A DNA stretch of 64,000 nt from a virus (taxonomy: Duplodnaviria > Heunggongvirae > Uroviricota > Caudoviricetes), in IMG/VR virus record IMGVR_UViG_3300035498_000944. One strand, given 5' to 3'. The notes below the pieces were generated by a model. The model saw only the letters and a program-made list of their open reading frames with translations. It had not been told where the DNA came from and did not search any database. Made by a program: the position numbers and the translations under genes. Below, piece by piece: positions 6,990 to 27,130 of this stretch (positions are counted from its first letter, which is position 1; every line of letters starts with the position of its first letter).

Positions 6990-7244
6990 TTAGACGGCTT
7001 TCTTTTTAGCCATCCACATAGCCTTTGTAGCAGCTGCACCTCTCTTAGCACTATCTGCTTTATTAAGTTTTAGTAATGCATCTACCTCACTATATAAACC
7101 ACTGTTAACCTTAGGCAGATCATGTCTAAAAACATTATGTAGCATACTCTTAGATATACCAGTTTCGGCAGATAATCTTCTAAGAGTATAATCACCACTT
7201 ACAAATAAAAACGCAAGTCTTTCAACATCGTCTTTAACCCTCAT
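6990..7244 (-). CDS. spoIIID: SpoIIID-like HTH transcriptional regulator
   Basis: 84 aa. GISKSMLHNVFRHDLPKVN...EV..LL..NK....RGAAATK follows the SpoIIID signature G.SKS.VH.DL...LP..N...EV.......K....RGG.ATK. Confidence 0.55.
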   Translation of the reverse strand: MRVKDDVERLAFLFVSGDYTLRRLSAETGISKSMLHNVFRHDLPKVNSGLYSEVDALLKLNKADSAKRGAAATKAMWMAKKKAV

Positions 7245-7270
7245 ATATTACAACCCCTTCTAAACTTGTA

Positions 7271-8602
7271 TTAATCTAAGAAAGGCTCATTAGCCTTTGC
7301 ATCAGCTTCAAGTTTCTTTTTAAGTAAGTCTGGGATATCAATACCAGTAGAAGATTTAATGATACTCATTACATTAGTAGCACCATCAAGAACTGCATTT
7401 GACATTTTTGAGATATTCTCTCCACCACCGACAACTGTAACATTATCTATAGCACTAAGAGGCTTAGCAACACTCTCAGCAACCTGTGGAAGCTTCTCAG
7501 CCACAATGTCAATCATAGCGGCAGAGCCATATTGCTTGTAAGCTTCTGCTTTGATCTTCATGGCTTTTGCCTCAGCTTCACCCTTAGCAAGTATAACAGC
7601 AGCTTCTGCATCACCCTTCATTTTTATAGCAGCAGCTTCTGCCTCAGCTTCGACTTTCTTTTGTTCTGCAATAGCTTGAGCTTCAATGATCACACGTTCC
7701 TTCTCTGCCTCTGCAGGTTTAATAACAGATGCAATAAGTTCCTTCTCTTTTGTCTGAGCCTGCTGTATAGCGAGTTGTTCTTCCTGCTTAGCAATTATCT
7801 CTTTCTGGCGAATGTCTTCAAGTACACCAGCTGCATCAGCTTTCTTTGTAGCTTCTGCTTGCTCACCACGATATTGCTCAAGACTAAGATGCTTATATTT
7901 AACTGAAGCAGCAATTTCTGTATCAGCTAGAAGCTTAGCCTTCTTACCATCTCTATCAGCCTGAGATGTCTGAATATCTGTATCTCTCTGCTTTTCAGCT
8001 GTAGCGATGTCAGCCTCTGCTTTAGATGCTGCTGTCTGCTGAGCAGCTTTGTTTTCAAGATACTTAGATGATGGAGTGGCAACTTTAGCCAGAGTATAGG
8101 ATATAAGCTCAAGACCCATCTTAGCCATATCATCAGCAGTACCTTGCTTTACATTAGCAGAAAACTTTTCCATGTCAGCAATGATATCATCAATTGTCAT
8201 AGTAGCAACAATTGAACGAAGCTGACCTATAAGAACTCTTGTTACAGATTCTGCTATCTTGTTCTTAGTATCCTTCTGAGAACCTTGACAGAATTGTTCT
8301 ACAGCAGTCGCAACAGCCTTAGGATTTGACGCAACTTTAACCATTGCTGTACCATACACGTCAACAAGAAGACCACCTTGTGAAGTTGACTCTTTAATCT
8401 CAACTGTAAGCGGTATAGATTCAAGTGATATAATACAAGTCTTTTCAATTCCAGGTATAATAAAAGAACCTTTACCTATGAGGGTACGAGGTTTTAAACC
8501 TGTAACCTGAATAGCTTCATCCGCATGTGGAGACCTCCAACAGATAATAAAAAATAAGATAACAGCTATGATTATAGTACCTGCAATAATAACATATAAC
8601 AT
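7271..8602 (-). CDS. flotillin-like SPFH/Band-7 protein (FloT-like)
   Basis: N-terminal TM segment, SPFH-like core, then a long Ala/Glu/Lys-rich coiled coil (AEAEAAAIKMKGDAEAAVILAKGEAEAKAMKIKAEAYKQYG) typical of flotillins. GGAGG RBS upstream. Confidence 0.7.
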   Translation of the reverse strand: MLYVIIAGTIIIAVILFFIICWRSPHADEAIQVTGLKPRTLIGKGSFIIPGIEKTCIISLESIPLTVEIKESTSQGGLLVDVYGTAMVKVASNPKAVATAVEQFCQGSQKDTKNKIAESVTRVLIGQLRSIVATMTIDDIIADMEKFSANVKQGTADDMAKMGLELISYTLAKVATPSSKYLENKAAQQTAASKAEADIATAEKQRDTDIQTSQADRDGKKAKLLADTEIAASVKYKHLSLEQYRGEQAEATKKADAAGVLEDIRQKEIIAKQEEQLAIQQAQTKEKELIASVIKPAEAEKERVIIEAQAIAEQKKVEAEAEAAAIKMKGDAEAAVILAKGEAEAKAMKIKAEAYKQYGSAAMIDIVAEKLPQVAESVAKPLSAIDNVTVVGGGENISKMSNAVLDGATNVMSIIKSSTGIDIPDLLKKKLEADAKANEPFLD

Positions 8603-8671
8603 AATATTAGTACCTCCTAAATATTAAATTTAAAAATGTTACTTCTGTATGTTTCTAAATTTATCTTATGA

Positions 8672-9616
8672 TTAGAATAAAGGTTTCCTTGCCCTTAGGT
8701 AATACTTAGAGATGGTTGGTCTACACTGAAATCCAAAGGTATTATCTTCACAATAATCTTTGAAATTATCTGGAGTTAATAGATCTTTCAACTTTAAACA
8801 CCATTCGAACATGTAGTTTGTAGTTTTAACATTAGACATATTGAAATTACAGATATCTAGGTATCCCAAATTCTCACAACCATCAAACATGCTCGACATA
8901 CTCTCAACCTTGGAGGTATCAAAGTTATAAAGCTCTAAATATTTTAAAGTACTACAATTCTTAAACATAGAATGCATGTCTGTTACTTTGGACGTATCAA
9001 AATGAAGAATATCTAGCCATTTTAAACTAGGACACTCCCAAAACATACAAGACATATCTTCAACATTAGAGGTGTCAAAACTACTAAGGTTTATAGTTTC
9101 TAGATTCCTACAATTCCAAAACATGCAAGACATATCTTTAACCTTTGAGGTATTAAAGCCAGATAAATCTAACTTATACAAACTATGACATCCAGCAAAC
9201 ATAAGCTTCATCTCCGTTACATTAGAAGTGTTAAAGTTGCTAAGATCTATATATTCCAAATGCATACAGGCATCAAACATACGTGACATACATGTTACAT
9301 TCGCTGTATTAAGATTATTAAGCTCAGCAGTAGTTAACTCAAAACAACTATAAAACATACCTCTCATGTTCTTAACATTGCTAGTATCTAACAAGTCATT
9401 TAAATTGACATGTTTCAAACTAGAACAATCTTTAAATAAATAAGAACAATCATCAGGCAGAATAACTTGATAACCATCCATAAATGCCGGGAGATCTATA
9501 TCTCGTACTTTCTTTTTCTTCACGAGCCTATTTATCTTTACCCAGCCATCACCATAAGTACTACTGAATATATTGTCAAATTGCTCACGAGACATCTTTG
9601 ACAATTTAATCAACAC
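8672..9616 (-). CDS. BspA/DUF285-like LRR repeat protein, paralog 1 (314 aa)
   Basis: Conserved N-terminal module (...GDGWVKINR...LPDDCSYLF) followed by 26-aa MF..C..L..LD.S.F.TS.V..M repeats. Confidence 0.75.
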   Translation of the reverse strand: MLIKLSKMSREQFDNIFSSTYGDGWVKINRLVKKKKVRDIDLPAFMDGYQVILPDDCSYLFKDCSSLKHVNLNDLLDTSNVKNMRGMFYSCFELTTAELNNLNTANVTCMSRMFDACMHLEYIDLSNFNTSNVTEMKLMFAGCHSLYKLDLSGFNTSKVKDMSCMFWNCRNLETINLSSFDTSNVEDMSCMFWECPSLKWLDILHFDTSKVTDMHSMFKNCSTLKYLELYNFDTSKVESMSSMFDGCENLGYLDICNFNMSNVKTTNYMFEWCLKLKDLLTPDNFKDYCEDNTFGFQCRPTISKYYLRARKPLF

Positions 9617-9626
9617 CTTTCTTTAT

Positions 9627-11189
9627 TTAGCGTCCGAACATCTTGTTGTTTTTCCAATCAGCACCTTTTAATTTTGCTGGACAACGTAAAAACATATTCT
9701 CACAATTAAATGGATTAGACAATACTTTTTCCATGTTAAAATTACTTAAGTCTAAATTGGACAAACTGCTACAATCTTGGAACATACCAGCGAAGTTTTC
9801 AACATTCTTTGTGTCAAATCTACTCAAATCAAGTTCTTTCAAATTGTAGCAATGAGCGAACATCCAATGCATATCTTTAACGTTTGTAGTGTAAAAACTA
9901 GATACATTTACACTCTCCAGATTTTCACAAGAGCAGAACATATAGTCCATATGTGTTACATATCCAGTATTGAAATTACTCAAGTCTAATGTTGTTAGAG
10001 ATTCACAGTTTGAAAACATGCCAGACATATTTCTAACCTCAGATGTATTAAACTTCTTAGTATCTATATGGGTTAACTTTTTGCAATCAGAAAACATATT
10101 ACCCATATCACATACTTTAGATGTTCTGAAACTACTTATATCTAATTCAACAAGATTCTTGCAGTTATAGAACATGTCATTCATAAAGTGTACATTTGAT
10201 GTATTAAAGTTAGATAAATCTAACTTGTTCAGTTTTTCGCATCCATGGAACATGCTGTTCATTTCTTCAACGCTTGATGTATCGAAAGAACTTATATTTA
10301 AGTCAGTTAAACTAGAACAATACATAAACATATTATACATAGTCTTTACATGCTGAGTATTGAAACTAGATAAATCCAATGCAGTTAAGTTCTCACATTT
10401 ATAGAACATATTAAACATGTGCTCAACACTTGATGTATTGAAATTAGCTAAATTTATATTAACTAATTTACTACAACCCTCAAACATAGATATCATAGTA
10501 GTTACCTTTGCTGAGTTAAAAGAACTTAAGTCTAAAGATGTCAAATTCTGACAACCGTTAAACATATTACACATATCCTCAACATTAGTAACATCAAAGC
10601 TGCTTAAGTCTATATCAGGTAAACTTTTACATTCTGTAAACATACCTCTCATGTCTGTTACTCTAGAAGTATTAAAACTACTCAAATCTAAAGATTTTAA
10701 ATTCGTGCAATGACTAAACATATATGACATATCTGTTACAGATGATGTATCCATACCTTCCAAGTTTACACTCTCTAAACTATTACAATCAAAGAACATT
10801 CCTGACATGTCTTTAACACTGTCTGTACGCAACTTATGTATATTCAAGTTACATAAACTAGAGCATTTACTAAACATCTTAGACATATCTGTGACATTAA
10901 TAGTTAATTTCATACCTATAGAAACATCTACTAATGAAGTACATCCCTCAAACATACTAGACATATTGGTTATGTTTTTCCAATCCAATACACCTCTAAG
11001 ATTTACAGATTTCAAATTCTTACATCCTGAGAAAAGATAAGAGCAATCATTAGGTAAAAATACTTGAAGGCCATCCATAAATATAGGCATAACTAATTCT
11101 TCAATGGATTTGTCTTTCACCTTAGTTACCTTGACCCAGTCATCACCACATTCGTATTCGAATAAGTCCATAAATTCCTGTACTTCCAA
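9627..11189 (-). CDS. BspA/DUF285-like LRR repeat protein, paralog 2 (520 aa)
   Basis: Same N-terminal module (YECGDDWVKVTKVKDK...LPNDCSYLF) plus about 17 repeats. Confidence 0.75.
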   Translation of the reverse strand: MEVQEFMDLFEYECGDDWVKVTKVKDKSIEELVMPIFMDGLQVFLPNDCSYLFSGCKNLKSVNLRGVLDWKNITNMSSMFEGCTSLVDVSIGMKLTINVTDMSKMFSKCSSLCNLNIHKLRTDSVKDMSGMFFDCNSLESVNLEGMDTSSVTDMSYMFSHCTNLKSLDLSSFNTSRVTDMRGMFTECKSLPDIDLSSFDVTNVEDMCNMFNGCQNLTSLDLSSFNSAKVTTMISMFEGCSKLVNINLANFNTSSVEHMFNMFYKCENLTALDLSSFNTQHVKTMYNMFMYCSSLTDLNISSFDTSSVEEMNSMFHGCEKLNKLDLSNFNTSNVHFMNDMFYNCKNLVELDISSFRTSKVCDMGNMFSDCKKLTHIDTKKFNTSEVRNMSGMFSNCESLTTLDLSNFNTGYVTHMDYMFCSCENLESVNVSSFYTTNVKDMHWMFAHCYNLKELDLSRFDTKNVENFAGMFQDCSSLSNLDLSNFNMEKVLSNPFNCENMFLRCPAKLKGADWKNNKMFGR

Positions 11190-11210
11190 TTTTATACCAA
11201 CACCTTTCTT

Positions 11211-11750
11211 TTACAGTCCATAACCAGAACAAACATTTATATTTACCAAACTATCACATCCATTAAACAGCCTAGAGAAATGTGTACAGATATTCTGTAG
11301 AAAACTTTCATCTATGACTATAGTGGTTAAATTACAATCTCCGCTGAATATTTCATTTCCGTTAAATTTGTTTAGGAATTCGAAATTACTCAAATCTATT
11401 GACATTAGATTTTCACAATCCATGAACATTCCAGATATATCTATGATGTTGGATGCATCAAAATAGCCAAAGTCCACACTTTCTAAATGTATACAAGAGG
11501 CAAACATAAATGACATGTTTGTGACATTTGAGGTATCAATTAAATCACTTAAGTCAAGATTTACTAATCTACGACATCCTGAAAATAAAGAACTACAGTT
11601 ATCAGGTAAGCACACTTGATAACCTTCTATATAGGATGGTATAACTATATCAGTAGCATATCTATCTTTGACTCTTGTTATCTGAACATAATCCTCACTG
11701 TAAGTACATTCGAATAAACTTTCAAATTCCTCATAGGGCATATCGTACAT
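11211..11750 (-). CDS. BspA/DUF285-like LRR repeat protein, paralog 3 (short, 179 aa)
   Basis: N-terminal module plus about 4 repeats. Confidence 0.7.
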   Translation of the reverse strand: MYDMPYEEFESLFECTYSEDYVQITRVKDRYATDIVIPSYIEGYQVCLPDNCSSLFSGCRRLVNLDLSDLIDTSNVTNMSFMFASCIHLESVDFGYFDASNIIDISGMFMDCENLMSIDLSNFEFLNKFNGNEIFSGDCNLTTIVIDESFLQNICTHFSRLFNGCDSLVNINVCSGYGL

Positions 11751-11766
11751 TCATAACAAATCCTTT

Positions 11767-12825
11767 CTAACATAGATGACTTATCATATTTCTGATAGCT
11801 TTAAATTCATATCCACTATCATAATTAGATATAATATCTGTTAAACTTGTACACCCATCAAATAAGCCATCTGAATGTGCTTTACTAGGTATTATAAAAT
11901 TCTTGCCTAAAGTCAGCTTTGATAGACTATAGCAATCCTCAAACATCTCACACATATCTGTAATATTAAGAGTGTTAAAGCTACTAAGGTCTAACTCTGT
12001 TAGACTCTGACACTCTGCAAACATTTCATACATGTATATGACTCTAGATGTGTTAAACTTGTTAACATCAAGTGATGTTAGGTTAGTACAATCTCTGAAC
12101 ATATAAGCCATATCTCCAACCATAGAAGTATCAAAATTTCTTATATCTAGAGAGTTTAGACTACTGCATCCGTAAAACATAGAGAACATATCTACAACTT
12201 TGGATGTATCAAAACTACTTATGTTTAAATCTGTCAGACTAACGCATCTAGCAAACATGGCAACTGCATATACTAAATTAGATGTATTAAAGTTACTTAA
12301 ATCTAGGCTTTGCAAATTACTGCAATCCTTAAACATTCTAGACATACCTGCAACGTTAGTAGTATTAAAGTTGCTTAAGTCAAGTTCTTTAAGACTTTTA
12401 CACTTACAGAACATATCAGACATATCAGTTACCTTAGAGGTGTCAAAGTTGCTAAGATCTAGCTCTTGCAGAAGATAGCAAGAACTAAACATTGATCGCA
12501 TATCTGTAACATTTGATGTATTAATATTACATAATTTTACAACCTCCAGCAACTTACAAGATGAAAACATGTAAGCCATATCTACAACATTGGATGTATC
12601 AACTATATAATTAAAATCAATATAACGTAGGTTATGACAAACCTGTAGCAGATTTGTACAGGCGTTAGGTAGAAATACTTGCAGACCCTCTACATGTGAT
12701 GGAATTGTTAATCCCTGTATTGGAATATCCTTCACTTTAACTATTTGTACACGATCTTTACTACTTTCATACTCAAATAGTCTATCAAACTCTTCAAAAG
12801 ATATTTCTAACATTTTAGACATCAC
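11767..12825 (-). CDS. BspA/DUF285-like LRR repeat protein, paralog 4 (352 aa)
   Basis: N-terminal module plus repeats. Confidence 0.75.
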   Translation of the reverse strand: MMSKMLEISFEEFDRLFEYESSKDRVQIVKVKDIPIQGLTIPSHVEGLQVFLPNACTNLLQVCHNLRYIDFNYIVDTSNVVDMAYMFSSCKLLEVVKLCNINTSNVTDMRSMFSSCYLLQELDLSNFDTSKVTDMSDMFCKCKSLKELDLSNFNTTNVAGMSRMFKDCSNLQSLDLSNFNTSNLVYAVAMFARCVSLTDLNISSFDTSKVVDMFSMFYGCSSLNSLDIRNFDTSMVGDMAYMFRDCTNLTSLDVNKFNTSRVIYMYEMFAECQSLTELDLSSFNTLNITDMCEMFEDCYSLSKLTLGKNFIIPSKAHSDGLFDGCTSLTDIISNYDSGYEFKAIRNMISHLC

Positions 12826-12843
12826 CTTTCTTGTTGATATACT

Positions 12844-13995
12844 TTATTTGCAGGTAATAGTAGCGTTGCATCCTTCAAGTAACTCTGGTATATAAAATTC
12901 TATATTAGACATTGTGGATTTATTTAAACCTAAGTCCGTTAAGCTTACACAAAATTCAAACATGGAATTCATATTTCTTACATTAGAGGTATCAAAGTTA
13001 CTTAAGTCTAAACATGATAAACTCTCACATTCATAAAACATATTTGACATAGTTTCAACATTAGGAGTATTAAAACTACTTATATCTAAATCTGTTAAAT
13101 TTGTACAACCAGCAAACATCTCTGACATATAAATAACATTAGAGGTATCAAAGTTACTTAAATCTAAACATGATAAACTTCTGCAACTATGAAACATATT
13201 AGACATGTCAATAACACTAGAAGTATCAAGGTTCTTAATATTTAAATCGCATAAGCTTGTGCAACCTCCGAAAATGTAATTCATGTCTATAACATTTGAT
13301 GTGTTTAGATTACTTAAGTCCAAATATGTTAAACTACTACAACCTTCAAACATTTGTGCCATATTTGTGACATTAGTAGTATTAAGGCTACTAATGTCTA
13401 TAGCTGTTAATTTAGGACAGCTGAAAAACATACCAGACATATCTGAGGCATTTGATGTGTTAAAATCATTTAAGTTCACAGATTCTAAATTATAACAACA
13501 ACCAAACATATGCCTCAGACTCTTGATATTAGAAGCATTCAACTTACTCAAATCAATAGCCTTTAAACTATGACACCAAAAGAACATATTAGACATGTCA
13601 GTAACATTAGCAGTATTGAAATTGCTTATATCAACTTCTGCTAGATTCATACAGCTTTCAAACAAACTATGCATGTTAATTACGTTAAATGTGTTAAAGC
13701 TGCCAAAGTTTATCCTTGACAACTTATCACATTCACTAAACATTGCATACATGTTCTTCACGTTTGAAGTATCTATAACGTTACTCAAATCTATATGTTC
13801 TAACTCACGGCATCTAGAGAACAGATAGGAGCAGTCATCTGGTAAATACACTTGCAAACCATCTACATAGGAAGGAACTGTCATCTCCTCAATCTCAGAA
13901 TCCTTTAGTTTGATTATTTGCATCCTGTCTTCCAAATAGGCATACTCGAACAAATTCTCAAAATCATGTAATAACATTTTAATCATTTTAATCAA
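12844..13995 (-). CDS. BspA/DUF285-like LRR repeat protein, paralog 5 (383 aa)
   Basis: N-terminal module plus repeats. Confidence 0.75.
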   Translation of the reverse strand: MIKMIKMLLHDFENLFEYAYLEDRMQIIKLKDSEIEEMTVPSYVDGLQVYLPDDCSYLFSRCRELEHIDLSNVIDTSNVKNMYAMFSECDKLSRINFGSFNTFNVINMHSLFESCMNLAEVDISNFNTANVTDMSNMFFWCHSLKAIDLSKLNASNIKSLRHMFGCCYNLESVNLNDFNTSNASDMSGMFFSCPKLTAIDISSLNTTNVTNMAQMFEGCSSLTYLDLSNLNTSNVIDMNYIFGGCTSLCDLNIKNLDTSSVIDMSNMFHSCRSLSCLDLSNFDTSNVIYMSEMFAGCTNLTDLDISSFNTPNVETMSNMFYECESLSCLDLSNFDTSNVRNMNSMFEFCVSLTDLGLNKSTMSNIEFYIPELLEGCNATITCK

Positions 13996-14034
13996 TCACC
14001 TTTCATCAAATAAAAAATTTTCTTGCGTATTTCT

Positions 14035-15477
14035 TTATCCCCAATAAACTCTAGTAGGACAATCCCTAAACATGTTATCAGAGTTCCTCACATTAGAGGT
14101 ATTAAAATTAATCAAATCCAGATATGTTAAACTCTTACAATTTTCAAACATGGATTGTATGTATCTGACATTTGATGTATCAAAGTTCTTTATATTTAAG
14201 TCAGTTAAGCTTCTACATTCAAGAAACATACAACACATATTTATGACTTTAGAAGTATCAAAACTTCCTACATCTAAATCAGCTAGGTTGTAACATTCTG
14301 CAAACATAAAAGACATATCCTCAACATTAGAGGTGTCAAAGTTAGAGAGATCAAGACTCTTTATACTTTTACAAGCAGAAAACATTCCTGCCATGTCTGT
14401 AACATTTTCTGTGTTGAAATTGCTTATATTTAATTTAACTAACTCTGAACAGTTTGCAAACATAACTTTCATGTTCATAACATTGCTTGTATTGAAATTG
14501 CTCAAATCCAAATTCATTATATCACTACAATTATAAAACATACAGGACATATCTCTAACAGCAGAAGTATCAAAACTAGATAAATTTAAATTAGTTAAGC
14601 TAACACATTCCTCAAACATACATTCCATATCTATCACATTAGATGTATTAAAATTACTTAGGTACAGATTATATAAATCTGTACAGTAGTAAAACATATG
14701 AGACATACTTATTACATTAGAGGTATCAAAGTTGCTTATATCTAGAGACTCCAACCTTCTGCAGGTAGAGAACATTGATATCATATTTGTTACATTTGAA
14801 GTATCAAAGTTACTCAAATTTAAAGTTTCTATGGAACTATTCTGAAACATGCTTGACATATCTGTGACACTTGAAGTATCAAAACTACTGAGGTCCAGTT
14901 CTGACTGCCCATAATTGGCAAACATAGAAGTCATATCTCGAACATTTGAAGTATTGAAATTACTCAAATCCAAATGTGTTAAATCTTGACAACCACAGAA
15001 CATACAGTTCATATCTTTGACATTCGAAGTGTCGAAACTGCTTAAGTTTATAGAAGTTAAACTATTACATCCTGCAAACATGCAAGCCATGGTCTCAACT
15101 TTAGATGTGTTAAAACTACTCAAGTTTAATTTTATTAAACTGCTACAGCTTCTGAATACTCCAAACATATTTGTGACGTTCTCTGTATTAAAGTTGCTCA
15201 AATCTATTGTTTGGGCATTGGTACACCCTGAAAACATAGCTGTCATCTTGGTAACATTTGAAGTATCGATAATATGACTTAAATCTATGTCTTGAGCATA
15301 ACGACAGTTTTTAAACAATCGTGTACAATTTTTAGGCAGATATACCTGATGACCTTCAACATACGAAGGTATAACAACACTGCCATACAATTGCTGTATG
15401 GCAGTTATTTTTACCCAGTCATCACCTAAAGTATATCTGAACATTTTGTCAAATTCTTTAAATGACATTTCAAACAT
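14035..15477 (-). CDS. BspA/DUF285-like LRR repeat protein, paralog 6 (480 aa)
   Basis: N-terminal module plus about 16 repeats. Confidence 0.75.
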   Translation of the reverse strand: MFEMSFKEFDKMFRYTLGDDWVKITAIQQLYGSVVIPSYVEGHQVYLPKNCTRLFKNCRYAQDIDLSHIIDTSNVTKMTAMFSGCTNAQTIDLSNFNTENVTNMFGVFRSCSSLIKLNLSSFNTSKVETMACMFAGCNSLTSINLSSFDTSNVKDMNCMFCGCQDLTHLDLSNFNTSNVRDMTSMFANYGQSELDLSSFDTSSVTDMSSMFQNSSIETLNLSNFDTSNVTNMISMFSTCRRLESLDISNFDTSNVISMSHMFYYCTDLYNLYLSNFNTSNVIDMECMFEECVSLTNLNLSSFDTSAVRDMSCMFYNCSDIMNLDLSNFNTSNVMNMKVMFANCSELVKLNISNFNTENVTDMAGMFSACKSIKSLDLSNFDTSNVEDMSFMFAECYNLADLDVGSFDTSKVINMCCMFLECRSLTDLNIKNFDTSNVRYIQSMFENCKSLTYLDLINFNTSNVRNSDNMFRDCPTRVYWG

Positions 15478-15501
15478 TTTGCGTTTTAACCCTTTCGTAA
15501 T

Positions 15502-17130: not shown

Positions 17131-17157
17131 TCACCAAGTACCTGAGATATAATTTTC

Positions 17158-18456: not shown

Positions 18457-18508
18457 TATAAAACAACACCTTTCTCTGAGTGTTAACTTTTCTCTATAAT
18501 TTATCTTA

Positions 18509-19381: not shown

Positions 19382-19401
19382 CTTCCTAACAACTCCTTCA
19401 T

Positions 19402-19518
19402 TTATTCTTCACAATCCAAGTGAACCATGTATCCCATCTTCGTAAGCCTATATCTATCAGAGTCATATATATGCTGTCCACATATATGACAATAACATAT
19501 AAACTTCTGTTTAGGCAT
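19402..19518 (-). CDS. small zinc-ribbon-like protein of 38 aa (MPKQKFICYCHICGQHIYDSDRYRLTKMGYMVHLDCEE). Not in the supplied ORF track.
   Basis: ORF in the 210-nt gap between LRR paralogs 9 and 10. The C.C..CG...Y...........H..C pattern is paralogous to the ORF at 23437..23574. A weak RBS (AAAGGAG) lies further upstream. Confidence 0.35.
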   Translation of the reverse strand: MPKQKFICYCHICGQHIYDSDRYRLTKMGYMVHLDCEE

Positions 19519-19591
19519 ATAACCATATAGTATCTTCATTTTGTCTCATGTTTTCTCCTTTACTCATTTTAATGACTCTACTAAGCTAATA

Positions 19592-20458
19592 CTATAGCTC
19601 CGCAAACATATACCGCTCTATATAGTGCATAATTGTGTTTGTAAGGTTAAAACAACCAGCAAACATTTTAAACGTATCAGTAATATTGGAAATATCGAAA
19701 TTGCGAGGATCTAAGTATCTAAGATTATGACATCCATAAAACATATATGACATGTCAGTGACTCTGGAAGTGTTGAAATTACTAACACCTAAATATTCTA
19801 TGTTTTCACAACCCGCAAACATGCTGGCCATACACGCAACATTGTGAGTATTGAAATTGCTGAGATCCAAAGATTCTAAACTCTCACAATAGCTAAACAT
19901 GGAAGACATGCTCATAACATTGGAAGTGTCGAAGTTACTAACATCCAAATACCTTAACTTCTTACAATTGTTGAACATAGCACCCATATCTGTAACATTT
20001 GATGTGTCAAAATTGCTAACGTCAATACTTATCAAACTTGAACAGGTATCAAACATTCCTGTCATATCAATGACATTAGAAGTATCGAAACTTCTGATGT
20101 CCAGGGATTCTAAACAAAGACAGCGGCCAAACATATAACGCATATCTGTTACATTTGTAGTATTGAAGTTATTAAGATTCAAGGATTTAAGATTATCACA
20201 TCCATAAAACATATAGAACATGTTAGTAATATTTGATGTGCCTATAACATTACTTAAATCTAGAGATTCCAAGCTTCTACACTCATAGAATAATTTTTCA
20301 CAGTTATCAGGAAGATATACCTGATAACCCTCTACATAAGATGGTACTATCAAACTGCCTGGCATACTCTTATCCTTTAATTCAGTAATTTGTATCCAAT
20401 CATCACCATATGTGTATTCAAATATCTTATTAAATTCATCAAAAGACATTTTAAACAT
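19592..20458 (-). CDS. BspA/DUF285-like LRR repeat protein, paralog 10 (288 aa)
   Basis: N-terminal module plus repeats. Confidence 0.75.
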   Translation of the reverse strand: MFKMSFDEFNKIFEYTYGDDWIQITELKDKSMPGSLIVPSYVEGYQVYLPDNCEKLFYECRSLESLDLSNVIGTSNITNMFYMFYGCDNLKSLNLNNFNTTNVTDMRYMFGRCLCLESLDIRSFDTSNVIDMTGMFDTCSSLISIDVSNFDTSNVTDMGAMFNNCKKLRYLDVSNFDTSNVMSMSSMFSYCESLESLDLSNFNTHNVACMASMFAGCENIEYLGVSNFNTSRVTDMSYMFYGCHNLRYLDPRNFDISNITDTFKMFAGCFNLTNTIMHYIERYMFAEL

Positions 20459-20478
20459 TTAAAACAACTCCTTTTCAA

Positions 20479-21885
20479 TTACCAAATACCTGAGACACAA
20501 GTTTCCCAATTAAAGTAATCTATAGCTGGATAGCTTCGAACAAGTTCTCCATCATCATATACATGTATAGTTAAATTCTGGAAATTATCTATAATCCTCT
20601 CATTAGAAAATTGTGTTCCACGTAATTTTTGATCACATTTTAATCTATCTTCAAGTTCTTCATTTATATACAAATTGTTTAATGAACTACAGTTATACAA
20701 CATATTACACATTAAATTTATATTTGAAATATCGAAGTTGCTTATGTTTAAACTGTCAAGACTCTCACATCCAAAAAACATATCTGTCATATTAGTGACT
20801 TTAGAAGTATCAAAACTATTCAAATCCAAGTATTTCAATTTACAGCAATTACAAAACATTCCTGCCATATCTGTAACATTTTCCGTATTGAAATTGCTTA
20901 TATCTAAAGAGTTTAGATTACTACATCCGGAGAACATAGCAACTGCATATATTAAATTAGATGTGTTAAAATTATTTATGTTTAAACATGCTAAACTCTT
21001 ACATTTAGCAAACATAGCAATTGCATACACTAAACTAGACGTATCGAAGTTACTTAAGTCTAGGCTTTGCAAATTACTGCAATCCTCAAACATTCTAGAC
21101 ATATCTGTTACACTAGAGGTATTGAAATTACTTAAATCTAAATATGTTAAACTACTACAACCTTCGAACATACTTGACATGCTTGTAATATTTGAAGTGT
21201 TGAAGTTACTTAAGTCTAAATAGACTAAACTACTACAACCGTCAAACATTTCAGACATATTTGTAACATTAGTGGTATCAAAATCATTAATGTCTATAGC
21301 TGATAATCTCTCACAATGATAAAACATGCTAGTCATCTCTATAACATTAGAGGTATTGAAATTACTAATGTTTAAAGATGACAAGCTTGCACAATTATAA
21401 AACATATAAGATGTATCTGTAACCCTAGAAGTATTGAAATCGGAAAGGTCTAGATTAGATAACTTGTTACATTCCTTAAACATACCTGCCATATCTGTAA
21501 CATTTGATGTGTCAAAACTACTGAGATCCAAAAATTCTAGACAAGGACACTCACTAAACATGTATGCCACAGCTGTTACATTAGTAGTATTAAAACTGCC
21601 TAAGTTTATAGAGATTAGTCTATAACATTCATAAAACATAGCGGTTGTATCAATTACATTAGATGTATCTATGATATCACTTAAATCTAGGGATTCCAAT
21701 CTGTCACACCAAGCAAATAATCTAGAACAGTCATCTGGAAGATATACTTGATAGCCCGCAACATAAGTTGGTACTATCAAACTACCTGACATATCTGTAT
21801 CCTTTACTTTAGTTATCTGAATCCAATCATCACCATATGTATATTCAAATATTTTACCAAAATCATCGAAAGACATTTCACTCAT
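20479..21885 (-). CDS. BspA/DUF285-like LRR repeat protein, paralog 11 (468 aa) with C-terminal cassette
   Basis: N-terminal module, repeats, and the shared C-terminal module. The 3' 100 nt are identical to paralog 7. Confidence 0.75.
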   Translation of the reverse strand: MSEMSFDDFGKIFEYTYGDDWIQITKVKDTDMSGSLIVPTYVAGYQVYLPDDCSRLFAWCDRLESLDLSDIIDTSNVIDTTAMFYECYRLISINLGSFNTTNVTAVAYMFSECPCLEFLDLSSFDTSNVTDMAGMFKECNKLSNLDLSDFNTSRVTDTSYMFYNCASLSSLNISNFNTSNVIEMTSMFYHCERLSAIDINDFDTTNVTNMSEMFDGCSSLVYLDLSNFNTSNITSMSSMFEGCSSLTYLDLSNFNTSSVTDMSRMFEDCSNLQSLDLSNFDTSSLVYAIAMFAKCKSLACLNINNFNTSNLIYAVAMFSGCSNLNSLDISNFNTENVTDMAGMFCNCCKLKYLDLNSFDTSKVTNMTDMFFGCESLDSLNISNFDISNINLMCNMLYNCSSLNNLYINEELEDRLKCDQKLRGTQFSNERIIDNFQNLTIHVYDDGELVRSYPAIDYFNWETCVSGIW

Positions 21886-21905
21886 TCTAAAACAACTCCT
21901 TTCTT

Positions 21906-22550
21906 TTAGGGTAGATTCATATCTTGTTCAAATTGAGTTTGTAATGTATCATTACCATATAAGTCTTTTAAACTACTACAGTCTCTAAACATATTCTCCA
22001 TAGTATCAACCTTAGAAGTGTCAAAACTACTTAAATCTAGTTTTCTTAGATGTTTACATTTAACAAACATATGCGACATTTCATTGACGCTAGAAGTATT
22101 AAAACTACTTAGGTTCAAAGATTTTAAACTCATGCAATCCGCAAACATACCAGACATATCAGTAACATTATGAGTATCAAAATTGCTGACATCTAAGGAT
22201 GTTAAACTATCACACCACCTAAACATACCAGACATATCAGTAACATTAGAAGTATTGAGATTGCTAACATCTAAGAATGTTAAATTATGACAACCTCCAA
22301 ACATCTCACACATGTTAGTAACATTTGAAGTGTCTATAACATCACTTAAATATAGAGATTTCAATCCTTCACAGTTAAAAAACAGATCAGAACAATCGTC
22401 AGGTAAATAAACTTGATAGCCCTCAACATGAGAAGGTACCATAAGTGTACCTTGCATATCTTTATTTTTCACCTTAGTGATCTGAACCCAATCATCACCA
22501 TATGTATAGTCAAATATTCTATTGAATATTTCAAAAGACATTTCATTCAT
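21906..22550 (-). CDS. BspA/DUF285-like LRR repeat protein, paralog 12 (214 aa)
   Basis: N-terminal module plus about 6 repeats. Confidence 0.75.
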   Translation of the reverse strand: MNEMSFEIFNRIFDYTYGDDWVQITKVKNKDMQGTLMVPSHVEGYQVYLPDDCSDLFFNCEGLKSLYLSDVIDTSNVTNMCEMFGGCHNLTFLDVSNLNTSNVTDMSGMFRWCDSLTSLDVSNFDTHNVTDMSGMFADCMSLKSLNLSSFNTSSVNEMSHMFVKCKHLRKLDLSSFDTSKVDTMENMFRDCSSLKDLYGNDTLQTQFEQDMNLP

Positions 22551-22580
22551 TCTGTATCAACTCCATTATGTATATAATTA

Positions 22581-23411
22581 TTATTTCCAATAAACTTCTG
22601 CAGGACAGCCGTCGAACGTAGACATGGCTGATATTCTTTTATGTCTAACAAAGTTGCTAAAATTAATTTGTTTCAGACTCTCACAATAGGCAAACATTTC
22701 AGATATGTCTGTAACACTTGATGAGTCGAAACTACTTAAATTCAAATAGGTTAACTTTTCACAATAACCGAACATTCCAATCATGTTTGTGACATTAGAG
22801 GTGTTAAAGTAATTTACATATAAACACTCTAACTCGTGACAACGATAAAACATGTAATACATATTTTGTACATTTGATGTTATGAAATTATCAAGATTTA
22901 AACTCTTTAATCTTTTACACCACATGAACATGTAACTCATATCTGTAACATTAGAAGTATCGAAGTTGGATAAATCAAGATATGTAAGATTACTACAACC
23001 GTAAAACATCTCTGACATATCAACAACATTAGATGTATTTAAGCTGACTAAATCTAAATCTGCTAGAGAGGTACAATGAGAAAACATAGCATGCATATTA
23101 CTAACATTAGAAGTATCGAAGTTGCTAATGTTTAATACCTCTAAACTACAACAGTTAAAGAACATTCTAGATGCGTTAGTGACATTAGATGTATCTACAA
23201 TATTATGTAAATCGATTTCCTTTAACTGTGTACCTTCAGCAAATAGATCTGTGCAATCATCTGGTAAATAGACCTGATAATCATCTACATATGAAGGAAC
23301 AACTAGTCTAGTTAGTTTACCATCATTCTTAAATTCAGTTATCTGAATCCAATTATCTGCACATGTGTATTCAAATAACCTTCCAAATTCATCGAAAGTC
23401 ATATTGTTCAT
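22581..23411 (-). CDS. BspA/DUF285-like LRR repeat protein, paralog 13 (276 aa)
   Basis: N-terminal module plus repeats. Confidence 0.75.
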   Translation of the reverse strand: MNNMTFDEFGRLFEYTCADNWIQITEFKNDGKLTRLVVPSYVDDYQVYLPDDCTDLFAEGTQLKEIDLHNIVDTSNVTNASRMFFNCCSLEVLNISNFDTSNVSNMHAMFSHCTSLADLDLVSLNTSNVVDMSEMFYGCSNLTYLDLSNFDTSNVTDMSYMFMWCKRLKSLNLDNFITSNVQNMYYMFYRCHELECLYVNYFNTSNVTNMIGMFGYCEKLTYLNLSSFDSSSVTDISEMFAYCESLKQINFSNFVRHKRISAMSTFDGCPAEVYWK

Positions 23412-23436
23412 TTTGTATCAAATCCTTTCTTTTTTA

Positions 23437-23574
23437 TTATTTACTAGTACATTCTTTGTGACGTATAAAACCCCCATCACTGTATGTATAAACTTCATAA
23501 CCATATACAGGCTCACCACAAATATCACAGTAACCCTTTATAATAGGTTTAGGTGTTGCAATAAAAACTGACAT
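23437..23574 (-). CDS. small zinc-ribbon-like protein of 45 aa (MSVFIATPKPIIKGYCDICGEPVYGYEVYTYSDGGFIRHKECTSK). Not in the supplied ORF track.
   Basis: Strong RBS GAGGAGG lies 9 nt upstream of the ATG. The CxxC...HxxC pattern is paralogous to the ORF at 19402..19518. Confidence 0.55.
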   Translation of the reverse strand: MSVFIATPKPIIKGYCDICGEPVYGYEVYTYSDGGFIRHKECTSK

Positions 23575-23602
23575 GATTAAGTACCTCCTCTTTAGCTAAT
23601 AA

Positions 23603-24592
23603 CTAACAGAGTTTATATCCACAATTAGGACAGAAGTTAGCACCTGTAGTTTTACTTCCACAATTAGGACAGAAATTTGGTATCTGTCCAGACTGCTGGA
23701 AATTATTTACCTGCTGATTTGACTGACCTTGCTGAGGCATAGACATAGGATTACTATTCATCATATGTTGAGCCATTTGCATACCCATCATTAACCCAGC
23801 CATATCTCTAGCTGTACCACTAGCAACATTTCCGCCTGACGGCTTTGTTAAGCTATCGAGCATCTGCATCTGTGAATATCTCTGCATATCTCCTACCATA
23901 GAGTAGGAAGCATTCTTTTGTACCATTGCTTGAACTTCATCTGGATATGTAACACTGCCAATATTGAACTGTCTTATAGAAATACCAGTATCAACAATGT
24001 TCATATCAAGTTCCTTCATAATACCTTGTCCAATCTCAGATGAATTTGCCTGAATGTTGAACATGTCTTTACCCTCTTTTACAATCCACTTACTAAGAAG
24101 TTGATCAAGAACAGATGTTATACGAATCTTAATATCATCAACACAATAAGAGTCTTTTACACCTGCAATTCTTTCAACTGTTGCAGTATAGTTTGTGAGT
24201 TTAAATACTAGGGTGCCATTTGCTCTTATAGGCATACCACCTGGCATATTTGGATTAGGTATATTAATTGGTTGTTTAGTTCCCCATCTTATGGTGAACT
24301 CTCGTGTATTTATAAAAAGAACCTCTGCTCTCATACCTGTATTAAATCCAAACTTAAAACCTTTAAGCTTAGATAAAAATGGTATGATTTGAGATTCAAT
24401 ATCAAACTCTCCTGTTTCTGTGAAGATGCCTTCTATTTTACCCTGATACATAAATATAGCATTCTGACCAGGTCTTATTATAAGTCTACTTCCTTTTTTG
24501 ATTTCATTGTTATGCCACTTGTAGAATATTTGGTCATCCCTATATTCTTCCCACTCTACAACGTTAGCTAACTGACTTGTAAAAAATCCCAT
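23603..24592 (-). CDS. SPFH/Band-7 domain protein with C-terminal zinc ribbon (COG4260 / B. subtilis YdjI-like)
   Basis: SPFH-like core, Met/Gln-rich linker, and a C-terminal CPNCGSKTTGANFCPNCG zinc ribbon. Last gene of the PspA operon, as in pspA-ydjGHI. Confidence 0.65.
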   Translation of the reverse strand: MGFFTSQLANVVEWEEYRDDQIFYKWHNNEIKKGSRLIIRPGQNAIFMYQGKIEGIFTETGEFDIESQIIPFLSKLKGFKFGFNTGMRAEVLFINTREFTIRWGTKQPINIPNPNMPGGMPIRANGTLVFKLTNYTATVERIAGVKDSYCVDDIKIRITSVLDQLLSKWIVKEGKDMFNIQANSSEIGQGIMKELDMNIVDTGISIRQFNIGSVTYPDEVQAMVQKNASYSMVGDMQRYSQMQMLDSLTKPSGGNVASGTARDMAGLMMGMQMAQHMMNSNPMSMPQQGQSNQQVNNFQQSGQIPNFCPNCGSKTTGANFCPNCGYKLC

Positions 24593-24612
24593 AAGGAATC
24601 TCCTTTCTTATT

Positions 24613-25335
24613 TTAAAAATGTCCGCCACCATGGCTTCCACCTCCACCTCCACCATATCCACCTGAACGATTACTACTCTTTCTAGTCTTCCTTATATCA
24701 GTCCAAGTGTAATCCATACGGAGTAGTGTAGCATTGCTTTTAGAGGTATCAAGAAAAGTCTCACCTGTGGCTCTTTTAATACCTGTAGACTCTTTGTATT
24801 GAAACCACAATATTATCATAGAACTTATTAGAGCTACACAAAAGAAGAATAAAGCTATAGGAACTATCCATATGGAAAATCCTGTAAGCTTAGGATGTTT
24901 CACACATTTATTCTCTAGCTCTAGAAATTTCATACATCCCTTGTAGTATGTACCTTTTGTGAACTTACTACGAATGCATTGATATATTAAGGTATCAATA
25001 TCAGTTGTTATTTTATCTTTAAGCAAACCATAAGCAGACACATCAATATATCTATCGTTCATGTTAACATATAACATAACACAATCAGGACTGTTAGAGT
25101 GTTGACTGTAGAAACTAGTTGCTTCAGTCTCATGCTTAGTAGTGTTGGTATTATTTGTATATATTATGACATCTATGTTTTGTTTACTCATTACTGACTT
25201 ATCATAGAAAGTTATAAGTTGAGACTCCTCCTCATTTGTCAATAATGTAGCATCATCAGCTATAAGAATGGTAGCATGAGTTGTTGTTGCAAATGTAACT
25301 ATAAAAAACAATGTTATAAAAATCTTTTTTATCAT
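24613..25335 (-). CDS. TPM-domain (YgcG/YdjH-like) membrane protein with Gly-rich tail
   Basis: Signal/TM segment, a TPM-like core (ILIADDATLLTNEEESQL...DRYIDVSAYGL), a TM segment and a C-terminal GGYGGGGGGSHGGGHF tail. Confidence 0.55.
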   Translation of the reverse strand: MIKKIFITLFFIVTFATTTHATILIADDATLLTNEEESQLITFYDKSVMSKQNIDVIIYTNNTNTTKHETEATSFYSQHSNSPDCVMLYVNMNDRYIDVSAYGLLKDKITTDIDTLIYQCIRSKFTKGTYYKGCMKFLELENKCVKHPKLTGFSIWIVPIALFFFCVALISSMIILWFQYKESTGIKRATGETFLDTSKSNATLLRMDYTWTDIRKTRKSSNRSGGYGGGGGGSHGGGHF

Positions 25336-26447
25336 GACTTTTTAGCACCTCCCGGATCCTTAGATTTTGAACGGAAGGGTTTATAATATAAATAGTATAT
25401 AACAACTGCGATTATAGAGAATACTGCCAAACATAAAGCAGACTTCCAATCAATTGCAAATCCAGCACACAAGTAGTAGATGTATCCTACTGGTATATAA
25501 CAAAGTGTTGCTATTGCTACTGTTCTAAAAACCTTTGTTGGACTTATAGGAGTCTCACCTGCGATACAGCCAGATTGACCATTCATATAAAACTTATAAG
25601 TCTTACCATCTACGTTACAACTGAATATGTATAATGGGTAATAGATTAAGTTTATTTGATTGTTTCGTTTTATAACAGCATCTGCTTTTATGTTAGCAAC
25701 TTTATAACCCTGTATACGTTGTGAGAAATAATCTACGACGAACCTTTCATTTATAGTATCAGCAACATGCTTTACTTGGCGATTATCATAATCATACCGC
25801 TTAGATCTTGTACCAGATAAAACACATGGATCAAAGTTAGTAATGTTATCATTATTAAATGGAGTTATAGCTTCCATATAATCATCATCTAATTCTTCCA
25901 TACCATCAGCAGGAATATAATTAGTTATAACATTACCAATAACTTCAGCATCAAAATGTTTTATTTCAGTTATTATATAATCACCTGAAGAATGTTTTGT
26001 AGTAGTCGTAACATCAAATAACATACTTCCACTATTTTCATAATCAAAACACCAAAATGGCATAAGATATTTATTAGTCTTTGTTATATGTATAGATTTT
26101 CTTAATTCATTTGATACAAGTGGTCTAGTTTTTAGCCAGGCTTTAAACTTCTTTTCTGCTTCTTTATCATCAAATTCAAAGGGAGCAATAAAATCAGGAG
26201 TTTGCATTGAATCTAGAACATCTGTATGTATAACCGATCTTTCACATGCTTCACAAAATCCAGATAAGATATTACCATGTGAATCAATAGGAGAACCACA
26301 ACTTATACAAAGCTGTGATTCTCCAGTATCTTTAGGCTCAATATCCAACAAACTGAAGTGTGAATTACATGAAGTACAGATCATGTCATCTGTTTGTTTC
26401 ACATAAATTAATTCTCCACCACAACTGGGACATTGATAGCTTAGCAT
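25332..26447 (-). CDS. double zinc-ribbon membrane protein (YdjG-like)
   Basis: Two zinc ribbons (CPSCGG...CTSCNSHF and CISCGSP...CEACERS) and two C-terminal TM helices. Start and stop are coupled to the flanking genes. Confidence 0.5.
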   Translation of the reverse strand: MLSYQCPSCGGELIYVKQTDDMICTSCNSHFSLLDIEPKDTGESQLCISCGSPIDSHGNILSGFCEACERSVIHTDVLDSMQTPDFIAPFEFDDKEAEKKFKAWLKTRPLVSNELRKSIHITKTNKYLMPFWCFDYENSGSMLFDVTTTTKHSSGDYIITEIKHFDAEVIGNVITNYIPADGMEELDDDYMEAITPFNNDNITNFDPCVLSGTRSKRYDYDNRQVKHVADTINERFVVDYFSQRIQGYKVANIKADAVIKRNNQINLIYYPLYIFSCNVDGKTYKFYMNGQSGCIAGETPISPTKVFRTVAIATLCYIPVGYIYYLCAGFAIDWKSALCLAVFSIIAVVIYYLYYKPFRSKSKDPGGAKKS

Positions 26448-26449
26448 AG

Positions 26450-27130
26450 TTATTTACCTGCTTTCATAGCTGCAAGCTCTGCTTCTATATCATCAGCATC
26501 ACTTGAGGCTTCACTGTCATACTTAGCTATCAATTCTGCAGTATCATCAATACGAGATGTGCTAAGTTCAGCCATAGCATTAGCTCTATCTATCATATTG
26601 TTTGCCCGTTCTTCTATTCTATCAAAGGCACCTATAGATGTTGATGCACCTGAAAGAGAAGAACCTATATTATTAATTTTCTCCTGTGTCTTAGCAACAG
26701 CTATCTTAGCCTTTATTTCCTGTCTACGGCTATTTAAATTGGATATATCTTTTACAAGCTTATCATGCATTTGACGCATCTGTTCTGCTTTTGCTTTAGC
26801 ACTTTCATGTACAGCCTTAGCAGATTCAATTCTTTTGTTAGTTTCATTCTTAAGTGCAAGAAATCTTTTTGCATCGTCATCATTGCCAGCATCAACAGCT
26901 TTCTGAGCATAATCTTTATATTTATTTGCTTCAGCTTCAAGAGCTTCAACATCTCTTCTTGTTCTCTGCTCTTCTGCCATTATAGCTGCTGTTTCAGCCT
27001 TCACATTACCAAGATCTTTCTCAAGATTTCTCATTACCTGATCAATCATTTTAGAAGGATCTTCTGCCTTGTCAAGCAAAGCATTTATATTACTTTCCAT
27101 AATGTCTTTAAAACGTGTTAAAATACTCAT
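26450..27130 (-). CDS. pspA: PspA/IM30 family protein (phage-shock protein A / LiaH-like)
   Basis: 226-aa coiled coil. MSILTRFKDIMESNINALLDKAEDPSKMIDQVMRNLEKDL is a typical PspA/Vipp1 N-terminus. Confidence 0.75.
   Translation of the reverse strand: MSILTRFKDIMESNINALLDKAEDPSKMIDQVMRNLEKDLGNVKAETAAIMAEEQRTRRDVEALEAEANKYKDYAQKAVDAGNDDDAKRFLALKNETNKRIESAKAVHESAKAKAEQMRQMHDKLVKDISNLNSRRQEIKAKIAVAKTQEKINNIGSSLSGASTSIGAFDRIEERANNMIDRANAMAELSTSRIDDTAELIAKYDSEASSDADDIEAELAAMKAGK

Follow-up and report, generated by a model that had tools for sequence, protein, structure and literature searches.

The Psp response takes its name from phage stress, and the sigmaW control of its genes is a regulatory feature of Bacillus subtilis, not a property of the gene family. 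In this bacterium recruitment of the ESCRT-III-like PspA to the membrane depends on the SPFH protein YdjI, acting with YdjG and YdjH, which are membrane proteins (PMC8581546; PMC9239133). A counterpart of this operon was found in the DNA described here, a window of 64,000 nucleotides (nt), which is the whole stretch analysed, from the IMG/VR virus record IMGVR_UViG_3300035498_000944. Positions 6990-27130 of the window, on the minus strand, hold the genes of a SpoIIID-like helix-turn-helix (HTH) protein and a FloT-type flotillin, 13 leucine-rich repeat (LRR) paralogs, two zinc-ribbon open reading frames (ORFs) of 45 amino acids (aa) and a four-gene Psp module. All the genes which an earlier note had named in this stretch (SpoIIID-like, flotillin, LRR family, YdjI-like and PspA module) were present on the minus strand where it had placed them, and the Pfam searches agreed with its identifications. 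We consider it reasonably probable that three cargo modules, each with a history of its own, form a mosaic here in the accessory arm of a large low-GC element, and the phage-borne complete Psp operon is its most interesting part.

The four genes of the Psp module lie on one strand in the order pspA, ydjG, ydjH, ydjI with gaps of 2, -4 and 20 nt, the ydjH-like gene overlapping the stop of the ydjG-like gene by 4 nt. As judged by Pfam and hydropathy, the domain architectures are all those of pspA-ydjGHI: PspA_IM30 in the first protein, a zinc ribbon with transmembrane (TM) segments in the second, a TPM domain with TM segments in the third (hydrophobic segments being found N-terminally and mid-protein) and Band_7_1 without a TM segment in the fourth. 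By gene content, order and domain make-up the module is a complete, apparently intact operon derived from a host. The YdjI-like protein is 58-64% identical to bacterial YdjI (Bacillus, Anaerocolumna, Lachnospiraceae). Eighty bacterial ydjI loci were fetched with a YdjI alignment, and in 77 of them pspA and ydjG were found upstream on the same strand; the 778-1388 nt (median 911) which separate ydjG from ydjI there would accommodate a ydjH-sized gene. The median identity of the window's PspA to the PspA of these 77 loci was 52%. In case of the YdjG-like protein the identity to the bacterial copies, located by tblastn between pspA and ydjI in 77 of the 80 loci, was about 25%, and the YdjH-like protein was approximately 22-24% identical to bacterial YdjH.

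The first gene of the module, pspA, starts 19 nt past a gene coding for a NADAR-domain protein, and a sigmaW-type site (TGAAAC-N15-18-CGTA) is absent throughout the 64-kb window. Taken together, these two observations would indicate that the stress control of the host has been replaced by read-through in the gene train of the element.

Database-wide protein searches recovered only three YdjI and two flotillin relatives which were closer than the bacterial ones. The three YdjI copies, 66-73% identical to that of the window, are located on related elements. A 184-kb contig (L007) keeps the window's order, with a PARG homolog (38% identity) upstream of PspA (59%), YdjG (39%), YdjH (28%) and YdjI (73%), and with DUF3592, dUTPase and T2SSE-ATPase genes downstream of the module. 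A 4-kb contig (L011) carries YdjI (73%) followed by unrelated genes, a guanylate kinase being present as well. The third is a 45-kb contig (L016/L017, Logan SRR33454263_35211) in which the Psp genes are rearranged: positions 7673-13981 of L017 contain PspA (47%), a 205-aa ORF, a nucleotidyltransferase (NTase)/HEPN pair, YdjI (66%), YdjG (38%), an 86-aa ORF, a second YdjG and YdjH (24%). A second Polbeta/HEPN pair lies 5 kb beyond this rearranged module. In a neighbour-joining tree the four element-borne YdjI proteins formed an exclusive clade. Since the YdjG copies of the elements are 38-39% identical to each other and only about 25% identical to the bacterial ones, a long retention within the lineage is indicated. 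The Psp module (represented on the short contig L011 by YdjI only) is the sole part found in all related elements; by this distribution it is, apparently, the ancestral cargo of this element group, flotillin being common to two members. The four-gene module has been conserved in three or more related large elements in spite of their deep divergence, which implies a benefit to the element.

Such a module is rare in the phage and plasmid records, and the presence of these genes in the stretch is more than chance. In a collection of 50,697 GenBank phage records (INPHARED) tblastn found PspA in two, both of them unverified and unannotated 'Bacteriophage sp.' scaffolds (4 and 22 kb), one of which also had YdjI. 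Flotillin-like genes occurred in 10 records, including one complete genome (csAssE-Sib, with an annotated flotillin), and DUF285 in 130, several jumbo phages among them; the SpoIIID-like protein had no tblastn match in this collection, and megablast of the 20-kb stretch against it gave no match either. Scans of IMG/VR with the YdjI protein and with the YdjI and PspA alignments returned no relative, and the scan with the flotillin returned one partial match of 37 residues (L012) and nothing related. YdjI above 30% identity was found on none of 72,556 plasmids. In a full-text search of the literature, papers on PspA or SPFH systems encoded by phages did not come up, and neither a report nor a catalogued genome was found for a complete Psp effector operon in phage. 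The statement of the earlier note that the ensemble is not a described phage system is in line with these searches, which brought up no paper and no catalogued phage with it.

By analogy with B. subtilis, YdjG and YdjH would anchor YdjI, which in turn would nucleate PspA at the membrane (module running from 27130 to 23603). The operon is presumably expressed on the element's own schedule, free of host stress control, and it may serve to make the host membrane more stable or to repair it, and to keep the proton motive force during a long infection. It could counter damage to the envelope, holins that leak too early and abortive-infection effectors which attack the membrane. Should the module be expressed in infection, we would have a clear example of host membrane-repair machinery imported by a virus, and this would provide a handle on the membrane stress of long jumbo-phage infection and on the reported link between PspA and CBASS, an antiphage signalling system based on cyclic oligonucleotides.

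Table 1. Positions of the features discussed, in the order in which they stand in the window
Feature	Position	Strand	Evidence and remarks
tRNA-Val, unusual anticodon AAC	6663-6735	-	ARAGORN; isolated, just downstream of the SpoIIID-like gene and a 61-aa ORF
SpoIIID-family HTH protein, 84 aa	6990-7244	-	Pfam PF12116 7.8e-10, 39.2 bits (cutoff 27)
FloT-type flotillin, 443 aa	7271-8602	-	Band_7 4e-20 (73 bits); Flot 29.1 bits (cutoff 27); TM segment at 1-19
LRR paralog 1, 314 aa	8672-9616	-	DUF285 3.4e-55
LRR paralog 2, 520 aa	9627-11189	-	DUF285 1.6e-140; LRR_5 3.2e-33
LRR paralog 3, 179 aa, the shortest	11211-11750	-	DUF285 7.2e-11
LRR paralog 4, 352 aa	11767-12825	-	DUF285 7.9e-100
LRR paralog 5, 383 aa	12844-13995	-	DUF285 7.1e-67
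LRR paralog 6, 480 aa	14035-15477	-	DUF285 2.8e-135
LRR paralog 7, 542 aa	15502-17130	-	DUF285 2.5e-123; 24-aa insertion in N-terminal cap; common C-terminal tail
LRR paralog 8, 432 aa	17158-18456	-	DUF285 4.5e-74; common C-terminal tail
LRR paralog 9, 290 aa	18509-19381	-	DUF285 3.7e-41
Mini zinc-ribbon ORF (CxxC...HxxC), second copy, 45 aa	19402-19539	-	Read from sequence; inside the array; paralog of 23437-23574
LRR paralog 10, 288 aa	19592-20458	-	DUF285 1.1e-50
LRR paralog 11, 468 aa	20479-21885	-	DUF285 2e-78; TIGR02167 PARCEL 6e-103, 11 stretches; common non-LRR C-terminal tail
LRR paralog 12, 214 aa	21906-22550	-	DUF285 1.1e-36; no hydrophobic N-terminus
LRR paralog 13, 276 aa	22581-23411	-	DUF285 2.6e-54; leaderless
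Mini zinc-ribbon ORF (CxxC...HxxC), 45 aa	23437-23574	-	Read from sequence; between ydjI-like gene and LRR array; 45-aa gene call on independent contigs L001, L003-L006
YdjI-like SPFH protein, 329 aa	23603-24592	-	Band_7_1 9e-45; C-terminal Zn_ribbon_3 4.5e-08; without TM segment
YdjH-like TPM-domain membrane protein, 240 aa	24613-25335	-	Pfam TPM_phosphatase 1.2e-08, 35.4 bits (cutoff 22.1)
YdjG-like membrane protein, 371 aa	25332-26447	-	N-terminal CxxC zinc ribbons (weak DZR/Zn_ribbon Pfam); two C-terminal TM segments at 310-348
PspA/IM30 (ESCRT-III-like), 226 aa	26450-27130	-	Pfam PspA_IM30 6.9e-36, 124 bits (cutoff 33.9)
NADAR-domain protein	27150-27626	-	Pfam NADAR 7.2e-50; PADLOC PDC-M42C 1.2e-71; directly upstream of pspA
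Microbial PARG-like protein	29821-30570	-	PARG_cat_microb; TIGR02452 4.4e-48
tRNA-Leu (TAG)	32711-32792	-	Isolated, co-oriented with the ORFs
PARP-like protein (weak match)	36097-36576	-	Third member of ADP-ribose gene group upstream of the Psp operon
FtsK/SpoIIIE-like protein, 1,303 aa	36591-40502	-	phrog_1358
PolA, family-A DNA polymerase	50176-53451	-	phrog_17; with exonuclease domain
M23 peptidase	62215-63171	-	Part of sporulation/cell-wall-type cargo
RNA polymerase beta'-like protein, 252 aa	63152-63910	-	Weak Pfam Rpb1_5; phrog_25354; tblastn matches to beta' genes; resembles C-terminal part of beta'

Next to the Psp module, at 8672-23411 on the minus strand, 13 consecutive DUF285/BspA-type LRR genes were found with DUF285 E-values from 7e-11 to 1.6e-140 (Table 1). 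Their repeat unit of 26 aa (78 nt) is the TIGR02167 PARCEL repeat and gives the DNA a periodicity of 78 nt; the proteins are acidic, contain about 5% Cys, are 179-542 aa long and are 36-50% identical to each other. The AlphaFold2 model of paralog 13 (predicted local distance difference test score, pLDDT, 94.4) is an LRR solenoid with the BspA-like structures 4gt6 and 4fs7 and TpLRR 6mlx as the best PDB matches. Neither a signal peptide nor a lipobox nor a TM segment was detected in any of the 13 paralogs, the leader test being a heuristic one and not SignalP (over the first 40 aa no 12-residue stretch of the 13 proteins had a hydropathy above 1.07). The earlier note had called the stretch membrane/surface-focused, but the 13 LRR proteins, having neither signal peptide nor TM segment, do not count as 'surface' proteins. 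They are cytoplasmic (or virion) binding proteins and not exported surface proteins.

The most conserved part of the paralogs is the N-terminal 57 aa, with a mean column identity of 62% vs 38% overall. Among 1.84 billion representatives a profile of this cap matched no more than 43 proteins. These were products of the window itself, four short DUF285 proteins without a leader and, in most cases, internal blocks of giant BspA-type surface proteins. A novel targeting domain at the N-terminus was therefore rejected, as the profile shows an ordinary BspA-type block which is repeated inside giant surface proteins. The same cap could be understood in terms of the virion, if the 13 proteins were alternative receptor-binding or decoration modules docking through it and were unrelated to the membrane genes. 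A conserved N-terminus followed by variable repeat numbers and C-termini resembles the situation in phages with multiple receptor-binding proteins, DUF285 repeats occur within very long phage proteins (phrog_22899, 17273, 9915; PAU gp103) and are multicopy in other jumbo phages, and structural proteins need no signal peptide. However, the cap is the ordinary block of bacterial surface proteins, the LRR proteins are small, and their neighbours are non-structural cargo (NADAR, PARG, Psp, tRNA) with no structural gene nearby, thus we regard a role in the virion as quite unlikely.

Close relatives of this DUF285 subfamily were not found: the homolog search with an LRR paralog was dominated by generic DUF285 proteins, the query itself being unlisted, and in the IMG/VR scan one paralog retrieved two loci, whose generic DUF285 genes are without the cap. 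Judged from its distribution, the DUF285 array is confined to the window's element among the elements compared. It would represent a lineage-specific tandem expansion (23574 to 8672). Its LRR products would be solenoids which bind proteins in the cytoplasm, differ in repeat number and all have the BspA-type cap; their partners are probably host or defence proteins. An origin from recent duplication or gene conversion was rejected, the paralogs being 36-50% identical and the DNA repeats mostly 60-70%, with only the 5' ends and one tail at 86-92%. The paralogs at 15502-17130, 17158-18456 and 20479-21885 have in common a non-LRR C-terminal tail of approximately 70 aa (...LNDLYINEELEDR...VRSYPAI[DE]Y); it is also seen in DNA repeat D7, and identity at the DNA level reaches 86% there over 300 nt (17110-17409 vs 20458-20757), one of the most conserved stretches of the array. 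Both mini zinc-ribbon ORFs carry the motif YC.ICG...Y...G[FY]..H..C. The AT skew is positive (+0.03 to +0.10) over the array (8000-24000) and negative elsewhere in the window, and GC there is about 30%, which is probably a compositional effect of the amino-acid content of the repeats.

The third module consists of the flotillin and SpoIIID-like genes. The flotillin remains below the equivalog level (NCBIfam FloT NF058507, 254 bits vs a cutoff of 700). It is 68% identical to the L016 copy, 64-66% to that of L018, a bacterial-looking contig with an ordinary chromosomal context (MutS2, NrdD, MiaA), and about 44% to Clostridium flotillins; in the neighbour-joining tree the window and L016 flotillins were sisters and L018 came next. 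The SpoIIID-like protein is not an ortholog of the sporulation regulator (TIGR02844, 41 bits vs a cutoff of 111.5). The pair (8602 to 6990) would be made up of a host-derived flotillin and a SpoIIID-family HTH protein, which may control membrane fluidity or microdomains and interfere with mother-cell gene expression, respectively. The flotillin would be made separately from the PspA recruitment complex, and together they could preserve the integrity, fluidity and energisation of the host membrane.

The earlier note had gone further and had suggested that flotillin, YdjI/PspA module and LRR family form one functional unit, in which two SPFH scaffolds organise microdomains that recruit the LRR proteins or host proteins. 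The tight gene packing and the lack of an intergenic terminator within 6990-27130, where the terminator-like matches all fall in coding sequence, would fit such a unit; in the scan for sigma-70-like promoters the matches were fewer than, or no more than, in shuffles and could not be interpreted. The common orientation, which had been taken as a sign of a unit, is a property of the whole 64-kb window: since all of its ORFs bar one small one are co-oriented, this carries no information about the stretch. A comparative check of block co-occurrence, which had been proposed as well, gave a divided answer. The 45-kb contig contains flotillin (68%), a 198-aa ORF, a glucosaminidase, a leaderless BspA-type LRR_5 protein (8.9e-52), three ORFs and then the Psp genes, that is, a sister flotillin, an LRR protein and PspA, YdjI, YdjG and YdjH within approximately 10 kb. 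Flotillin, DUF285, SpoIIID, NADAR and PARG were all absent within 10 kb in the 80 bacterial ydjI loci, and as flotillin is near ydjI in 0 of these 80, the flotillin-Psp linkage is specific to these elements. It was seen in two of the three elements which have enough sequence to judge; this is too few to demonstrate functional coupling.

On the other side, L007 and L011 carry the Psp module or YdjI with neither an LRR array nor a flotillin nearby. In L007 both are absent within 10 kb of the Psp module, and no flotillin from this 184,105-bp contig was among the 120 best flotillin matches. The DUF285 array was found in no relative. The LRR protein of L016 belongs to a different family from that of the window (hhalign probability 58% over 15 columns), and the order of the genes is inverted there and broken up by unrelated genes (glucosaminidase, NTase/HEPN, ORFans). 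The LRR proteins of the window have no membrane-targeting feature, and in B. subtilis YdjI and FloT are found in different membrane regions (Scholz 2021, PMC8581546). Since the relatives carry only some of the components, an outcome which the earlier note had itself named as refuting, the block hypothesis was not upheld. The interpretation of the stretch as a single unit is weakly supported and we consider it unlikely, although the recurrence in L016 of flotillin and a BspA-type LRR protein beside Psp genes is still in its favour.

The genes upstream of the Psp module bear on another explanation. The NADAR, PARG-like and PARP-like genes (Table 1) may be anti-defence cargo. In Bacillus cereus, Cap2 conjugates the CBASS cyclase specifically to PspA, and PspA impairs CBASS at low expression (Kruger 2024, PMC11153139). 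Accordingly, it could be supposed that the PspA module of the element keeps a type II CBASS cyclase conjugated and inactive or neutralises membrane-depolarising abortive-infection effectors, the LRR paralogs being binders of various defence proteins. The position of the module directly behind NADAR and PARG-like genes, enzymes of ADP-ribosylation reversal, argues for this together with the PARG near the module in L007, and a diversified tandem family of binders matches an arms-race pattern. A decoy, however, would need PspA alone, whereas the module is kept with all four of its genes, membrane anchors included, and the target is purely putative. PADLOC gave no match for the SpoIIID-like protein, the flotillin, two LRR paralogs, YdjI, YdjH, YdjG and PspA, and recognised only the flanking NADAR gene (candidate PDC-M42C). 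We therefore find an anti-defence function of the module doubtful, and the island as a known defence system was rejected, there being no PADLOC family for its tested proteins.

Two tandem pairs of paralogs on the minus strand were noticed upstream of the Psp module. The members of one (28483-29133 and 29173-29805) have about 210 aa with N- and C-terminal hydrophobic segments and are 31% identical; those of the other (30582-30851 and 30990-31241) have about 85 aa and are 61% identical.

The 64-kb window contains approximately 83 ORFs in a dense train, all on the minus strand except one small ORF, with a GC content of about 32%; most are ORFans without family assignment. The traits of jumbo phages present in it are phage-type replication and transcription genes, scattered tRNAs (n=2) and dense unidirectional ORFans. 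Besides the polymerase PolA, a NAD-dependent ligase and an Hsp70-like protein are encoded, and the RNA polymerase beta'-like fragment suggests a split multisubunit RNA polymerase, as in some jumbo phages. The element has a size of at least 123 kb, the parent contig being 123,558 bp long (records of P0001 and P0121). Exact copies of its genes were found on short contigs from several metagenomes, and at least one such contig ends within the LRR array. Sporulation/cell-wall-type cargo is located at 5117-6082, 6990-7244, 34336-35795, 36591-40502 and 62215-63171, all on the minus strand, and comprises Cu_amine_oxidN1-domain, SpoIIID-like HTH, glucosaminidase-like, transglutaminase-like, FtsK/SpoIIIE-like and M23 peptidase kinds. 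It fits the sporulation genes, among them spoIIID and spoIIIE, which have been reported in gut phages (Schwartz et al. 2023, PMC10294663). Most likely the element is a jumbo phage of a low-GC spore-forming Firmicute.

Alternatively, the window could belong to a megaplasmid or conjugative element or be a piece of a bacterial genome, in which case the Psp operon and the flotillin would be housekeeping or stress genes of that replicon itself. The window has no capsid, terminase or tail gene, and the FtsK/SpoIIIE-like ATPase, the M23 peptidase and the T2SSE ATPase of L007 occur on conjugative elements too. The window's YdjI and flotillin found no copy in the IMG/VR scans, and the best matches of PolA in the plasmid collection were 349.6-kb Bacillus thuringiensis plasmids, at 27.6% identity over 62% of the query; in the phage collection every match was below 26% identity. 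Such an origin is nevertheless rather improbable in view of the one-strand train of mostly ORFans, the PolA with exonuclease domain, the ligase, the beta'-like fragment, the two tRNAs and the PHROG matches, to which the dUTPase of L007 and the guanylate kinase of L011 can be added. No Firmicute-type YdjI was found on the 72,556 plasmids, and what a real chromosomal context of a flotillin looks like is exemplified by L018.

Several points weigh against three independent cargo modules on a phage. Capsid, portal, terminase and tail genes were all absent among the screened ORFs of the window, and that the element is a phage is itself something we infer. The physiological roles proposed above rest on analogy with B. 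subtilis proteins which are 25-64% identical. The linkage in L016/L017 exceeds what independent modules would predict, though it concerns only two elements with common ancestry, and one transcription unit may span the stretch. We still prefer the mosaic: each component adds a new member to a known family, the carrier being the unusual feature, and the ensemble is not a demonstrated system.

A bolder suggestion, which we offer tentatively as it is improbable, is that a large Firmicute phage lineage keeps its own self-timed ESCRT-III/SPFH toolkit (PspA-YdjG-YdjH-YdjI, with flotillin in some members) in order to remodel or armour the host membrane, and that the leaderless BspA-type LRR proteins, found beside the module in two elements, are exchangeable adaptors bringing host targets to it. 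With such a toolkit the phage could, for example, carry a long jumbo-phage cycle through, set up or shield an infection compartment associated with the membrane, or weaken immunity that targets the membrane or is linked to PspA (CBASS). A separate and tractable question is raised by the leaderless family of 13 LRR genes, namely the binding partners of cytoplasmic BspA-like proteins.

Compared with the known DUF285/PARCEL BspA-like surface proteins (Mycoplasma, Listeria, gut Bacteroidales and Clostridia), the LRR proteins of the window are alike in the 26-residue repeat, the N-terminal block and the solenoid fold. NCBIfam and NCBI records call this family surface protein or surface lipoprotein, whereas the 13 copies lack the expected signal peptide or lipobox; they are short and acidic and form a 15-kb tandem family. 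Among their 120 closest database homologs a hydrophobic N-terminus is retained in 40, and some of the others seem to be 5'-truncated. Large phages (Sphingomonas phage PAU, Aeromonas D3/D6/LAh10, Lak megaphages, Butyrivibrio virus Arian) have the same repeat family at several sites per genome. The PAU copy inspected is part of a single long protein, gp103 (1,857 aa), while the window has a tandem array of small genes, and none of the DUF285/BspA-like genes of other large phages was seen adjoining PspA or SPFH genes.

The flotillin is similar to bacterial FloT (YuaG) in its N-terminal membrane anchor, SPFH domain and Flot C-terminal region, but it is approximately 40-60 aa shorter than typical. 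No NfeD-family match was recorded in its neighbouring genes, the next gene downstream being the SpoIIID-like one, and phage precedent for a flotillin is rare, the annotated one being that of csAssE-Sib. As in the gut phages with sporulation homologs (PMC10294663), SpoIIID-family and FtsK/SpoIIIE-like genes are both present; the SpoIIID-like protein of the window is, however, a distant family member without a tblastn match in the phage collection. Finally, the Psp module agrees with pspA-ydjGHI of B. subtilis (PMC8581546, PMC9239133) in its four genes, their order, the single strand and the domain make-up. It differs in being located on a phage-like element rather than on a chromosome, without a sigmaW-type promoter and fused behind a NADAR gene, and in its proteins, of which YdjI is 58-64%, PspA about 52% and YdjG and YdjH about 22-25% identical to the bacterial ones, the element copies of YdjI forming a separate clade.

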